64,000 nt of DNA from Clostridia bacterium (lineage in GTDB: Bacteria; Bacillota; Clostridia; Christensenellales; Borkfalkiaceae): assembly GCA_017508485.1 (NCBI GenBank), contig JAFVYV010000011.1, positions 20,295 through 84,294 on the forward strand, read 5' to 3'. The notes beneath the pieces are model-generated. The model searched no databases and was not told the origin of the DNA. It was given only the letters and a program-made list of their open reading frames with translations. Each line of letters starts with the position of its first letter. Within the stretch, counting starts at the first letter, position 1. Shown one piece after another: positions 57 through 4,097 of this stretch. A program made the translations under genes and the position numbers.

Positions 57-671
57 ATGAAAAAACTAGGTATACTTATTGCATTAATTCTTTGCGTTAC
101 TATCGGTGGCGTTTACGCTACTTGGACATATACGCAAAACACAGACGTAGCCGATGAAACTATTAACATGACAATGAACTTAACTGACGTTGCATATAGC
201 GGTTCTTACGGTACTTATGAAATTAACACAGATTCTTTAAAGTTAAAGATTGACCCTAAAAAAGACACAACTCACACGACTGCACTTTACATTGAAGGTC
301 AAATCGTAATTACTTTTACACCTAACTCTGTTGCTCCAGAAGAAGTAAAAGAAAATGGTGTTGCTTCTACCTTTCAGTTTGGTTTAACAAACGCTAACTG
401 GACTTATGACGATGGTGACGGCGCTAAAAAGCTTATTACTTTAGCACACGACGAAGCTGAAGATATCGTTTGGGGCGAACCTGATGAAAACGGCGTATTT
501 ACTTACATAATTACTGCTGAAGCTCTTGCTGAACACATTAATTTAGCAGAATTCAACCTAGATACAAAGGTTAAGTATGACGAATTTAATACAGTTTTAG
601 GTAATGGTCAAATTACTATCACAGTTAGTGACGGTATAACTGCTACAAACCCTATTCCAAACAATCAATAA
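57..671 (+). CDS. Exported protein with SipW-cognate (TasA/camelysin-class) signal peptide; candidate major matrix/fibre subunit
   Basis: ATG preceded by AAGGAGAG (44-51). The N-terminus is MKK plus a hydrophobic helix ending IGGVYATWTY. The same GG-x-aromatic-A-T-W pattern occurs in the two downstream paralogous N-termini and resembles the TasA ...GGGTWA|AFND signal. It has its own terminator (688-720) and lies next to a SipW-type peptidase gene. Confidence 0.7.
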   Translation: MKKLGILIALILCVTIGGVYATWTYTQNTDVADETINMTMNLTDVAYSGSYGTYEINTDSLKLKIDPKKDTTHTTALYIEGQIVITFTPNSVAPEEVKENGVASTFQFGLTNANWTYDDGDGAKKLITLAHDEAEDIVWGEPDENGVFTYIITAEALAEHINLAEFNLDTKVKYDEFNTVLGNGQITITVSDGITATNPIPNNQ

Positions 672-687
672 TTGATACTGACATAAT

Positions 688-720
688 AAAGCCAGTCGTT
701 TTTTATCGGCTGGCTTTTTA
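688..720 (+). terminator. Rho-independent terminator after the 204-aa exported protein gene
   Basis: Stem GCCAGTCG (691-698) pairs with CGGCTGGC (707-714), with one G-U pair, followed by a T-run. Confidence 0.7.
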
Positions 721-745
721 TACATTTTTACTACAGTGACGAAAA

Positions 746-2005
746 ATGACAAAATTTGAGATATATTCTTTAATTCTTTGCATTATCGTTTTCGTTATGC
801 TTGTTAGCCTTTTTTCTTATATGCTAACTATTTTGATAAAGCAAACGTTAAAACACGTAAATGCAGGGTTAGAAGATGAAAATTTAATAAAAGAGTTTAC
901 TAACGCTAAAAAGCCAAGCAACTTTTCAAAATGGTTTAACGCAATTTTGAACGGTTTACTTTGCTTAATTTTTGGCGTTATTTTCGTTTCGTCACTTTAT
1001 ATAAGTTGTACTCAAAACACTTATTTTGAAAACGTACCTACTTATAGGGTTGTTTTAACTTCTTCTATGGAAGAAAAGCACGAAGATAACAAATATCTAA
1101 TAGAAAACAACCTAAACAACCAAATTAGCGCGTTTGATTTGATAGTTACTTACAAAATTCCTGATGAAGAAGACCTTAAACTTTACGACATAGTGGTTTA
1201 TGAAGTTGACGGAGTTTTAGTAGTGCATAGAATTGTTGGTATTGAAGACCCTAACCAATACCACCCTAACGAAAGATACTTCCTTTTACAAGGGGACGCA
1301 GTTGGTAAGCCTGACCGTTTCCCTGTAAAGTACTCTCAAATGAAGGGTATTTATAAAAATCAAAAAATACCGTTTATAGGTAGTTTCGTTCTATTTATGC
1401 AATCTCCTGCAGGTTGGCTTTGCATATTGTTGGTTGCAGGTAGTATAATTTTAACACCTATTCTTGAAAAGAAACTTTTAAATGCAAGAAAGGCAAGATT
1501 TTTACTTATAACTAACGGCTCTATTATAACGGAAGAAGTTACTATAACGGAAGATTTTGAAGATAACTTCCTTGACGACGGCGAAAATATTAAAGTAGTT
1601 CAAGCAAAAACTTTTGTGGAAAAACTTGAACTTTCAAGCGAACAGGTTAAAAAGAGATACAAAAAGATTGTTGATACGCTTAACCGTATTGAAGATATTC
1701 GTTTAACGGAAGCAAAAAGCCAACATTCTTATAAGGTTAAGGCAGAAGGTATTGCAAGGTTGTTCTTTAGGGGTAAAGACCTTAACGTAGCACTTCCGTT
1801 AAATCCAGGATATTATAAATATACAAAATATATCTTTACCGACCTTTCTTCTTCAACAAAACACCAAAACTACCCTGTATGTATTAAACTATCTAACGAT
1901 AGACATACCGACTGGGTTTGTGATTTAATTTTAGTTATTGCAGAAGAATTTGGACTTAAGGTTTTAGATAAGCCAGTTGACCCTAAGTTGGCAAATGGTG
2001 AATAG
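746..2005 (+). CDS. sipW: Signal peptidase I, SipW / ER-archaeal (S26B) type, with two N-terminal TM helices and a ~170-aa cytoplasmic C-terminal extension
   Basis: Catalytic Ser box VVLTSSMEE, His box VVHRIVG and LLQGDAVG box, as in Ser/His-type SipW peptidases. A TM helix (GWLCILLVAGSIILTPIL) follows the catalytic domain. An extra soluble domain (KTFVEKLELSSEQVKKRYKKIVDTL...VCDLILVIAEEFGLKV) comes after it. Confidence 0.75.
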   Translation: MTKFEIYSLILCIIVFVMLVSLFSYMLTILIKQTLKHVNAGLEDENLIKEFTNAKKPSNFSKWFNAILNGLLCLIFGVIFVSSLYISCTQNTYFENVPTYRVVLTSSMEEKHEDNKYLIENNLNNQISAFDLIVTYKIPDEEDLKLYDIVVYEVDGVLVVHRIVGIEDPNQYHPNERYFLLQGDAVGKPDRFPVKYSQMKGIYKNQKIPFIGSFVLFMQSPAGWLCILLVAGSIILTPILEKKLLNARKARFLLITNGSIITEEVTITEDFEDNFLDDGENIKVVQAKTFVEKLELSSEQVKKRYKKIVDTLNRIEDIRLTEAKSQHSYKVKAEGIARLFFRGKDLNVALPLNPGYYKYTKYIFTDLSSSTKHQNYPVCIKLSNDRHTDWVCDLILVIAEEFGLKVLDKPVDPKLANGE

Positions 2006-2006
2006 T

Positions 2007-3401
2007 ATGAAAAAGAGTATTGTATTATTCGCCTTTATAGCAGTTATAACCTTAATAGCATCTATCGGTGGCACTTTTGCTACTTGGTATTTTGCAGAAG
2101 AACCACCTACTCCCGTAATGAAGTCTGAAGATATAGGCATTTCTGAATTTGAATATAAGCCTTTCCAAGGAGTATATATAGATTCAATAATAGTATATGA
2201 TTTTAAGAACGTAACTGAACGTGCAACGGAATTTACTAAACCTACCGATATTTACTCTTCAGTTAGGGCAGTAGCAGGGTCGTACATAACTTATAAGGTT
2301 ACTTTTCATAATAACAGTTCGGTTAACCATTGGTTTGTAAAAAAATCTTTTACAAACTCATTAGTTCAAAACTCTTTGGTGGATAAACAAAATGGTGTTA
2401 CGATAACGCTGAAGGACCACCCTGGCGATAATTATTCTACATTTAATAATGAAGACTGGATTCCTGCAAACACCTATCGTGACGTTTATATTACCTATAC
2501 GTTTGGCTCTAATGCTATTAATGAAGTAACAACCTTTGTTTCATATATTTTTGGCGAAAAGATGGATGCCGTTTATACAAACTTTGTAGATATATTAAAC
2601 AATCAAGAGACGTATTCTTTTTTAGCAAAAGCCTTTGATGATAAATATTCAGCAACAGGCGAAGTTGTAATTGCAAATTTAGGCAAAGAAAAAGAAATAT
2701 TTGATACACTTTTTGGTGGTGACGTTACCATTAACGTTGACGGGCAAGACGTTCCTGTAACCATTATGATTAGGCGTGAAAACGTAGATGGCAAAAACAC
2801 GGGGGATGCTTATGCTAACGGACCAACTGGTTGCGAATACACGTTGTATATAACCATTGATGAATTAGATGCAAACAACAATCCTACGGGTAAAGCAACA
2901 GTCTTTGCCGTTACCTATTCTGAAGGGGGAATTTCTAATCAAGACAAATGGTATCAAGTTGGCGAATTGTATGAAGGTACTTCTTCTCTTGACGGCTATT
3001 TAGGGGAAGATGCTTTTGATTATACAACTTGGGAAGCCGTTCCTAAAGAATATATTGTTGCAGATGGAATAACCTATAAAATTGGTTTAGAACAAGGCGA
3101 CCAATATCAAAAGATGAAAAAACTTGAAGAAATTATGGCTGTTAGAGATAACGAAATCTTTAACAAAATTAATAATACGCAAATTCTAAAAAAGGTGTAC
3201 GCTATTATTCACAATGCCCAAAACAAAGGAAAGCCAGGTTATGACATTTTAAAACAAGCGTTTGAAGATGCATCACCATTTTATACCGTTAACAATAACG
3301 GTGGAGATATTCCTGTTAACACCAACTGCACAAGGGCTGAAATATTGCCATATATTGAAGCAATTCAAAAAGCGTTAGATTACTATAACCAAGTTAACTA
3401 A
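2007..3401 (+). CDS. Exported 464-aa protein with SipW-class signal peptide (accessory fibre/matrix component candidate)
   Basis: I prefer the ATG at 2007, 1 nt after the sipW TAG stop, over the TTG at 1977. It gives MKKSIVLFAFIAVITLIASIGGTFATWYFAEEPPTPV, which parallels the 3450 gene. The remainder has no motif I recognise. Confidence 0.7.
   Translation: MKKSIVLFAFIAVITLIASIGGTFATWYFAEEPPTPVMKSEDIGISEFEYKPFQGVYIDSIIVYDFKNVTERATEFTKPTDIYSSVRAVAGSYITYKVTFHNNSSVNHWFVKKSFTNSLVQNSLVDKQNGVTITLKDHPGDNYSTFNNEDWIPANTYRDVYITYTFGSNAINEVTTFVSYIFGEKMDAVYTNFVDILNNQETYSFLAKAFDDKYSATGEVVIANLGKEKEIFDTLFGGDVTINVDGQDVPVTIMIRRENVDGKNTGDAYANGPTGCEYTLYITIDELDANNNPTGKATVFAVTYSEGGISNQDKWYQVGELYEGTSSLDGYLGEDAFDYTTWEAVPKEYIVADGITYKIGLEQGDQYQKMKKLEEIMAVRDNEIFNKINNTQILKKVYAIIHNAQNKGKPGYDILKQAFEDASPFYTVNNNGGDIPVNTNCTRAEILPYIEAIQKALDYYNQVN
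2075..2110 (+). repeat. 36-nt block identical to 3521-3556 (encodes FATWYFAEEPPT)
   Basis: TTTTGCTACTTGGTATTTTGCAGAAGAACCACCTAC is present in both paralogs. The flanking codons are conserved only at the protein level. Confidence 0.9.
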
Positions 3402-3449: not shown

Positions 3450-4049
3450 ATGTCAAAAAAAATAATGATTTCTTCAATATTTTTGGCTATATTGATATTT
3501 TGTGCTTCCATAAGTGGAGTTTTTGCTACTTGGTATTTTGCAGAAGAACCACCTACGCCTGTAAGTAAGGCAGAAGACATTGGAATATCTGAATTCGTTT
3601 GGAAGCCGGAAGAAATTTTGCCTGACGTTACGCCTGGTCAAAACTATTTAGACTTACACCAATCTATTTTAGAAAACGTAAAGGGTGGGCTTAACTCTTC
3701 AAAAGATACTTTAGAAGATGCCGTGCTTAGTGATAGAGACGGACTACTTCACAGTTCGCAAAACGTTCAAGGTGGTAACTTAGCGCACTTATTTATTACA
3801 AGTGCAACAAGGGAACTTGATTTTATTGTAGAATACGTTTCCGACAACGAGTTTTTGGTTTATATGTATGAAAACGCAAAGGCAGAAACAGGTGCCGTTG
3901 GGGTAACCAGAATTGCAGTATATAAAACCATTTATCTTAAAACGGCTGGCGATTGGGACGGAGCAGAAGCACAATACGGTTTTGCAACCGTTGACTTCTT
4001 CCCTAGTAGTAATATTATGGCGATAGACGTTAAAACTTGGTCAAGATAA
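3450..4049 (+). CDS. Exported 199-aa protein with SipW-class signal peptide (accessory component candidate)
   Basis: AAAGGAGG RBS at 3435-3442. N-terminus MSKKIMISSIFLAILIFCASISGVFATWYFAEEPPTPVSKAEDIGISEF. Terminator at 4061-4097. Confidence 0.75.
   Translation: MSKKIMISSIFLAILIFCASISGVFATWYFAEEPPTPVSKAEDIGISEFVWKPEEILPDVTPGQNYLDLHQSILENVKGGLNSSKDTLEDAVLSDRDGLLHSSQNVQGGNLAHLFITSATRELDFIVEYVSDNEFLVYMYENAKAETGAVGVTRIAVYKTIYLKTAGDWDGAEAQYGFATVDFFPSSNIMAIDVKTWSR
3521..3556 (+). repeat. Second copy of the 36-nt identical block (see 2075-2110)
   Basis: Perfect identity read directly from the sequence. Confidence 0.9.
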
Positions 4050-4060
4050 CTTAAAATTAA

Positions 4061-4097
4061 AAGCAGTAGTTTTTGCTACTGCTTTTTTTATTTTTTT
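4061..4097 (+). terminator. Rho-independent terminator ending the SipW locus
   Basis: GCAGTAG (4063-4069) pairs with CTACTGC (4076-4082), followed by a long T-run. Confidence 0.8.

Follow-up and report, generated by a model that had tools for sequence, protein, structure and literature searches.

The window analysed here is a stretch of 64,000 nucleotides from a Clostridia bacterium of the order Christensenellales and the family Borkfalkiaceae (assembly GCA_017508485.1, contig JAFVYV010000011.1, positions 20,295 to 84,294 of the forward strand). Near its start lies a four-gene unit in which the gene for a 419-residue membrane protein, present as the initial annotation had described it, is flanked by genes for three exported proteins (Table 1). 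The membrane protein belongs to a new subfamily of SipW-type signal peptidases, which carries an extra transmembrane helix (TM) and one to four cytoplasmic DUF5655-like modules. Taken together, the domain anatomy and the peptidase role are held with high confidence.

Table 1. Features of the four-gene unit and their positions in the window. Membrane sides are predicted (aa, amino acids; res, residues; CTD, C-terminal domain; pLDDT, predicted local distance difference test score; pI, isoelectric point).
Feature	Position	Strand	Basis or detail
Upstream exported protein, 204 aa, N-terminal motif IGGVYATWTY, conserved partner gene, presumed substrate	57..671	+	synteny in ~30 genomes
Hairpin of 11 bp and U-rich tail, separating the peptidase gene from the exported-protein gene before it	688..722	+	-19.6 kcal/mol, z -5.3
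Complete gene of the SipW/SEC11-type signal peptidase with its single fused cytoplasmic DUF5655-like module	746..2005	+	419 aa plus stop
TM1, res ~6-31, extra N-out helix absent from canonical SipW	761..838	+	hydropathy, model helix 3-40, N-tail mean K+R 0.4
Conserved basic cytoplasmic loop, res 32-62, short amphipathic helix 44-52, invariant G41 and D44	839..931	+	alignment, model, charge
TM2, res ~63-86, in to out, equivalent to the canonical SipW N-terminal anchor	932..1003	+	hydropathy, model, charge
Extracytoplasmic catalytic domain, res 87-220, with ~20 aa inserted behind the Ser box	1004..1405	+	invariant residues, SEC11A alignment, Foldseek, NCBIfam
Codons of S107; H161; D184; D190	1064-1066; 1226-1228; 1295-1297; 1313-1315	+	
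TM3, res ~221-243, out to in, followed by K/R cluster KKLLNARKAR	1406..1474	+	hydropathy, model, charge
Basic juxtamembrane stretch, then acidic low-confidence linker, res 244-287	1475..1606	+	pLDDT ~32 at res 260-285
Cytoplasmic module, res 288-405, H-H-E-E-E-E-h-E-H fold, net charge +6, pI 9.3	1607..1960	+	probable distant DUF5655/YdhG/YjbR/MotA-CTD-like
Downstream exported protein, 464 aa from ATG, motif IGGTFATWYFAEE, presumed substrate	2007..3401	+	start abuts peptidase stop
Third exported protein, 199 aa, motif ISGVFATWYFAEE, presumed substrate	3450..4049	+	
Intrinsic terminator closing the four-gene unit	4059..4096	+	consensus terminator scan

The catalytic boxes that had been noted as intact are all found: TSSMEE with S107, VVHRIVG with H161 and QGDA with D184. 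In an alignment of 53 relatives (41-90% identity), S107, M108, H161, R162, G183, D184 and D190 are invariant, and so are G41 and D44 in the loop between TM1 and TM2. The SipW of B. subtilis requires Ser47, His87 and Asp106 (PMC8767453). The proposed SipW-type identity is borne out by the NCBIfam SipW model (NF046067), which matches with an E-value of 7e-11, and by Foldseek. With the full-length AlphaFold model as query, Foldseek returns SEC11A (7p2p_A), SEC11C (7p2q_A) and S. pyogenes SipA (4n31), all with a probability of 1.00 and a template modelling score (TM-score) of ~0.5, normalised to the target; the best structural matches are human SEC11A and SEC11C. In addition, the family profile "VVHRIVGI...FLLQGDAVxxPDR" aligns with SEC11A "IVHRVLKI...FLTKGDNNAVDDR" over the His, GD and D boxes. 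A Pfam search of the 419-residue protein gave no match. Judged from its sequence, the core is predicted to be a divergent, catalytically complete signal peptidase of the endoplasmic reticulum (ER)/SipW type (MEROPS S26B).

The initial annotation had allowed that the C-terminal region might be a separate reading frame joined to the peptidase by a sequencing frameshift. Contigs from four runs in four independent gut metagenome studies span positions 1242-2005 with zero differences and zero gaps, and 1,856 relatives in other assemblies share the fused architecture, so that a frameshift or assembly artefact is excluded. The sequencing runs listed for the locus include no RNA run. Every listed relative that has a source name is called 'hypothetical protein', and in the literature searched we found no description of a SipW with a large C-terminal domain.

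Hydropathy places three hydrophobic segments in the protein. The full-length model, built from the 53-member alignment with a mean pLDDT of 80.4, contains long helices at residues 3-40, 59-88 and 221-262, a beta-rich domain at 99-203 and a compact domain at 290-401. The mean number of lysines plus arginines among the 53 relatives is 0.4 in the N-terminal tail, 8.7 in the TM1-TM2 loop, 1.3 after TM2, 1.0 before TM3 and 5.3 after TM3. Because of this distribution, the predicted topology is N-terminus out, loop in, catalytic domain out and C-terminus in. Charge bias, hydropathy and the model helices all predict a catalytic domain on the trans side between two TMs, and not a catalytic serine on the cytoplasmic side. 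The same bias agrees with the earlier assignment of the C-terminal region to the cytoplasm by the positive-inside rule. Two details of the original description need adjustment. Two TMs do precede the catalytic domain, but the supposed extra TM hairpin consists only of TM1 and the conserved loop as additional elements, with TM2 taking the place of the canonical anchor. Likewise, the soluble domain of ~170 residues is predicted to be cytoplasmic, as proposed, but it is really a linker of ~45 residues (244-287) followed by one folded module of ~118 residues (288-405), for which pLDDT exceeds 90.

Modelled alone, the module reaches a pLDDT of 89.6 and a predicted template modelling score (pTM) of 0.81, with secondary-structure elements in the order H-H-E-E-E-E-h-E-H. 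It has conserved motifs of its own, RGKTLN, TKY-F-D, YPM and R-W-ELI. Within the peptidase family the modules are strongly basic, with a median pI of 9.66 and a mean net charge of +9.6, and the last copy is the most basic. Against Pfam, the module of the window stays below every threshold and does not match DUF5655 (PF18899, gathering score 24 bits); a search of NCBIfam with the module gave no meaningful match. The DUF5655 model matches exactly one module, the first of protein P0179 (residues 453-549, 21.7 bits against the gathering score of 24). When the module alignment is compared by hhalign with nine true DUF5655 domains, the probability is 89.4% and the E-value 2.1e-6 over 105 columns. 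The module profile matches one true DUF5655 protein at E 1e-4, and a language-model feature search returns a DUF5655 cluster with a score of 0.93. We found DUF5655 mentioned in the literature searched, with no function given. The C-terminal third of two PADLOC models of the defence candidate PDC-S18 (PDLC04945/PDLC04946) is also the module.

Structure comparison with VIA-align against 48,161 chains lists a YdhG-like domain (Z 8.0), YjbR (2fki, 7.8), DR2400/DUF419 (2a1v, 7.8) and the MotA CTD (5jlt, 7.1), as well as CyaY/frataxin chains (Z 5-6.5) and secretion chaperones and Mediator subunits of the same general fold (Z 4-6). Foldseek with the module against the PDB returned nothing at E <= 0.001; its top entry was the MotA CTD at E 0.03. 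From these comparisons we conclude that the module is probably a distant branch of DUF5655 not covered by Pfam, with a fold predicted to resemble YdhG, YjbR and the MotA CTD. Two other identities were discarded. The module profile (positions 52-121) and the family profile match a viral portal protein weakly (7et2_A, residues 211-286, a stretch that includes LRGKHIRLYVAAEPLAYERDKLLFT), at E 0.004-0.013; lacking support from any fold search, this match is taken as probably due to chance, and apart from this marginal case the module profile found no solved structure related by sequence in the PDB. DUF2357 was rejected as the identity of the module, as DUF2357 matches fall outside the modules.

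The best structural match of the module is annotated as a YdhG-like 'frataxin' domain, and the CyaY/frataxin chains listed with it could point to a sensor of a cytoplasmic small molecule or metal, YdhG/frataxin-like, that gates the peptidase allosterically through TM3. We consider such gating very unlikely. The linker between TM3 and the module is disordered, which makes allosteric transmission improbable, and the module occurs in tandem copies and on non-enzymatic proteins. In addition, the residues that are conserved in the module (G, K, P, K-Y, D, P, R and W) do not include an acidic ridge of the frataxin type.

Searched alone against 1.84 billion representatives, the module retrieves 735 clusters at E <= 0.001; the peptidase core is missing from 106 of the top 150 module-bearing clusters. 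The impression recorded in the initial annotation, that similar sequence is appended to unrelated Firmicute proteins, was thus correct. Two to four copies in tandem are the rule among the 1,856 relatives, most of which have them. Among the peptidase relatives in the scored set, 94 proteins have two copies, 36 have three and 20 have one; some peptidase loci hold up to four copies, and the linkers are flexible and acidic or proline-rich. The other carriers include soluble multi-copy proteins, DUF2357 proteins and fusions of the module with DUF5305. A large class of carriers combines one N-terminal TM, a coiled-coil-like stretch and two modules. Giant carriers consist of a signal peptide, Ig-like, MBG and Listeria-Bacteroides repeats, TMs and two or three modules, and they end in a uL15-type domain (PF00828). 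In many carriers hydrophobic segments are absent altogether. The module is present in 59 of the 201 sampled genomes of the order. Three families have it in eight of eight sampled genomes each, and many other families in none; across the class it was found in only 5 of 250 genomes. The named relatives are Christensenellaceae-like metagenome-assembled genomes, Ca. Scatosoma and Ca. Coproplasma, from animal guts. A word-indexed search found no short stand-alone forms of the module, which is too divergent for shared 5-mers.

Wherever its side of the membrane can be inferred, the module is cytoplasmic. The two or three tandem repeats of ~120 residues at the C-terminal end of the giant Ig-like/MBG/Listeria-Bacteroides proteins could also be read as extracellular cell-wall-binding repeats, analogous to SLH or CWB2, if the topology were reversed. 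All of the topology and charge evidence contradicts this reading, and we give it next to no credence. In the giant surface proteins, each TM or TM hairpin that precedes the modules ends in a K/R cluster. In the single-TM carriers the N-terminus is uncharged and the helix is followed by an R/K cluster, which makes them N-out and C-in. Many carriers have neither a signal peptide nor a TM. A reversal would also put the catalytic serine of the peptidase in the cytoplasm, contrary to the charge bias.

The carriers have several further features. The uL15-family domain (PF00828, up to 52 bits, near-full model) ends many module-bearing membrane proteins (L075:3154-4476 on the minus strand of genome G157, P0225, P0241, P0185, P0248 and P0167), including giant surface proteins of 1,900-2,700 residues with Ig-like, MBG and Listeria-Bacteroides repeats. 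In these surface proteins the cytoplasmic tail bears a domain of ribosomal-protein type. The giant carriers share a conserved hydrophobic hairpin of ~45 residues ('SF..LLP...HYLD..YI.LYVIA...') between the first TM and the modules (P0225 residues 1202-1245, P0241 1971-2017, P0214 5629-5670, P0258 1208-1249), which may be a re-entrant or two-helix membrane element. A 151-residue module protein, probably P0216, joins an N-terminal fragment of RsmH/MraW (Methyltransf_5, E 7e-11) to the module and may be either a chimeric gene call or a real fusion.

The module is tied to SipW in three ways: by fusion to the peptidase, by adjacent genes for TM-module proteins with or without a uL15-like domain, and by fusion to DUF5305, a neighbour of SipW. 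The genome that contains the window (1.11 Mb, 87% complete) has only two module matches, both in SipW loci. The second locus (L050:1-3246, contig C1:50164-53409, minus strand) encodes a SipW-like peptidase of 266 residues (E 3e-17 over the full model). The product of the next gene, 218 residues long, joins an N-out TM to a divergent module (hhalign E 5e-5). This gene is followed by one for a 208-residue protein with the motif GGTFALWSD, which scores 27.9 bits against a cut-off of 19 for TIGR04088, the model of SipW-dependent signal peptides. A 161-residue TM protein and another exported protein (GATYALF) are also encoded there. In G157, a genome of the same family, the gene for a 240-residue SipW is followed after 2 nt by that for a 440-residue protein, which combines an N-out TM and one module with a uL15-type domain (PF00828, 52 bits). 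A module protein gene lies 6 nt before a SipW gene in G190, and the two genes are ~580 nt apart in G170. DUF5305 is fused to modules in P0149 and P0179, and genes for DUF5305 immediately follow SipW-like ones in G210 (twice), G185 and G231 (G210:C13:40516-41879, G210:C8:76231-77627, G185:C4:31118-32511 and G231:C66:3538-4887). The SipW-like matches upstream of DUF5305 sit in unusually long open reading frames of 372-398 residues, pointing to other extended SipW forms in the order. The initial annotation had suggested that the module could couple the peptidase to an intracellular partner. We infer the same, and the suggestion is strengthened because the split forms place SipW and a TM-module protein in adjacent genes.

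The three exported proteins that flank the peptidase in the window have an N-terminal junction 'GG[VT][FY]ATW' in common. In ~30 other genomes, the fusion gene directly follows a gene for a protein of 200-260 residues with IGGVYATW[TA]Y, and another such gene often comes after it. The hairpin upstream of the peptidase gene, which the consensus terminator scan does not list, is likely a partial terminator or attenuator and might lead to a high subunit-to-peptidase ratio. Genes further upstream were considered as part of the unit and set aside, as the 8 kb upstream encodes unrelated proteins resembling those of mobile elements and DNA methyltransferases, with translations judged by eye. In that region (L074:1-8101, C4:12300-20400 of the same genome, just upstream of the window) there are genes for proteins resembling a sigma factor and Rep, for two unknown proteins and for a 647-residue DNA-methyltransferase-like protein, and on the same translations it resembles a mobile or restriction-modification island.

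As a whole, these results are best explained by a dedicated ER/SipW-type peptidase with a cytoplasmic docking module that binds a polyanion, an explanation that we favour with some hesitation, the case for it being close to balanced. The peptidase would remove the signal peptides of the three flanking 'GG[VT][FY]ATW' proteins, as SipW does with TasA and TapA. The module would act as a docking or tether domain and take no part in catalysis; a disordered linker separates it from TM3. It may bind a cytoplasmic polyanion, that is, a nucleic acid, either RNA or the ribosome, or DNA. A nucleic acid as ligand is suggested tentatively, because of the basic charge of the module, its DNA-bound structural neighbour, and its co-occurrence with the uL15-type domain, DUF2357 and the defence-candidate context; we regard it as possible, with more doubt than assent. 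The neighbour in question, the MotA CTD, was solved bound to double-stranded DNA (title of 5jlt). Many other C-in membrane proteins of the order have the same module as their cytoplasmic tail, and in some genomes an adjacent TM-module gene, with or without a uL15-like domain, may supply the module to SipW in trans.

In this way the module could give the peptidase a second function at the membrane's cis side. One option is that it places the peptidase near the sites where its substrates are synthesised and exported. The other option is a regulatory output resembling that of the cytoplasmic C-terminal tail of B. subtilis SipW, which is bifunctional through its last 20 residues according to passages of PMC8767453 that cite Terra et al. 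2012. Carried further, the second option makes the module an enlarged version of the SipW tail, a membrane-tethered output domain that binds DNA or sequesters a regulator and thereby lets the peptidase govern the expression of its own fibre or matrix genes. The bifunctional precedent in those passages, the MotA-CTD/YjbR-like fold, the cytoplasmic location and the position of both module copies of this genome in SipW loci are consistent with such a role. However, the module is also found on giant surface proteins and soluble DUF2357 proteins, unlike an operon-specific regulator, and a flexible linker of only 25-60 residues limits the reach towards the nucleoid. We judge control of its own genes by the peptidase to be rather improbable.

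Alternatively, the module may bind no nucleic acid and serve as a unit of protein-protein interaction or oligomerisation, which clusters the peptidase with envelope proteins or docks it to Sec/YidC or a cytoplasmic scaffold. Copy numbers of 1 to 4 with flexible acidic or proline-rich linkers are typical of scaffolding repeats, and the module is found on many unrelated C-in membrane proteins. The secretion chaperones and Mediator subunits in the structural list would also fit. Such a scaffold does not account for the strongly basic modules of the peptidase family or for the co-occurrence with uL15-type domains, DUF2357 and defence-candidate contexts. In addition, apart from the exported proteins, no conserved partner gene stands beside the fused form in the loci of the ~30 genomes. 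A purely protein-binding module is unlikely in our view, without being implausible.

Several findings weigh against a SipW-type peptidase with a polyanion-binding docking module. The match to the NCBIfam SipW model scores 42.0 bits, against a curated cut-off of 190, and the archaeal signal peptidase I model sigpep_I (TIGR02228) matches at E 2e-8 with 34.3 bits, against a cut-off of 51.85; both alignments are restricted to residues 124-236. Because these scores are below the curated cut-offs, the protein is classed by its sequence as a SipW-like divergent subfamily and not as an equivalog. The exported proteins flanking the peptidase do not match TIGR04088. The full-length model has a pTM of 0.45, which makes it uninformative on contacts between domains. 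Outside the peptidase family the modules are less uniformly basic, and 27% of them are acidic (pI < 7), a finding that also suits the protein-interaction alternative. VIA-align Z-scores of 7-8, and likewise the Foldseek E-value of 0.03, lie in the range that the tool expects when a model has no true match. The fold class has members that do not bind nucleic acid; YdhG and frataxin, for their part, are iron-related. Finally, when the neighbourhoods of module genes are read with flanks of 1.5 kb, most have no SipW gene within that distance, so that the module is not SipW-specific.

SipW-type peptidases are bacterial relatives of the eukaryotic signal peptidase and control the assembly of TasA-like biofilm and spore fibres. 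The role of their cytoplasmic face is barely understood, and the one precedent is the 20-residue tail in B. subtilis. Here, an order of uncultured Clostridia from animal guts has attached one to four folded basic modules to this face of the peptidase. The module offers a concrete domain, suited to expression, for finding out what a signal peptidase contacts inside the cell, and its recurrent fusion and adjacency to peptidases in the order suggests an intracellular partner for protein export. It also defines an unannotated domain family of 735 clusters that marks the cytoplasmic tails of surface proteins, and it gives context and a fold to the C-terminal part of one PADLOC defence-candidate model. 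More speculatively, the module together with the uL15-type domain of the split forms might be a membrane-proximal tether to ribosomes, RNA or the nucleoid, coupling translation of fibre proteins to the dedicated ER-type peptidase and to other envelope proteins. We offer this as a long shot. If true, it would be a bacterial counterpart of the coupling between ribosome, translocon and signal peptidase at the ER, and the same principle of cytoplasmic anchoring would be common to many surface proteins of a gut Clostridial order.

Comparison with known systems suggests where this family stands. SEC11A and SEC11C (7p2p, 7p2q) are the best structural matches of the catalytic domain, and their His, GD and D boxes align with those of the family. 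SEC11 crosses the membrane once and acts together with accessory subunits, whereas the window protein fuses a cytoplasmic domain to the catalytic subunit itself. Some of the SEC11 accessory subunits have cytosolic domains; in VIA-align over the 48,161 chains, no similarity between the module and chains of the signal peptidase complex was seen. S. pyogenes SipA lacks catalytic residues and acts as a chaperone, whereas Ser, His and Asp are invariant in the family of the window protein. SipA/LepA (4n31, 4k8w) resembles this family in its signal-peptidase fold and in its tie to a surface-fibre locus, being needed for pilus polymerisation, and it has no cytoplasmic module.

The group of DUF5655 (PF18899), YdhG/DUF1801, YjbR/DUF419 and the MotA CTD, of which YjbR and the MotA CTD are 'double-wing' DNA-binding domains, has the same order of secondary-structure elements as that predicted for the module. 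The module differs from this group by its own motifs, by lying below the Pfam thresholds, and by its tandem repetition in cytoplasmic tails of membrane proteins, of which we found no description in the literature searched. In PDC-S18, for which the literature searched yielded no paper, the C-terminal ~110 model positions are the module (P0001 residues 277-395, E 3.7e-7; other carriers to 1e-15). Only model positions ~181-297 of 302 are matched, however, and the N-terminal ~180 have no counterpart in the peptidase.

The closest system is SipW of B. subtilis. Both proteins have Ser/His/Asp-type catalytic boxes and the same fold class, and in both an N-terminal and a C-terminal TM surround an outward-facing catalytic domain, as predicted here for the window protein. 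Both genes are embedded among those of their own exported substrates, which in the window are presumed. The C-terminus of SipW is cytoplasmic, as is predicted for that of the window protein, and a second function of the SipW C-terminus is reported in the passages of PMC8767453 cited above. In contrast to SipW with its ~190 residues, the window protein has 419, with an additional N-out TM and conserved cytoplasmic loop and an insertion of ~20 residues after the Ser box. It reaches 42 of the 190 bits set as the SipW cut-off, and its neighbours do not match TIGR04088. Where SipW ends in a tail of 20 residues, the window protein ends in a folded module of 118 residues, of which its relatives carry one to four copies.

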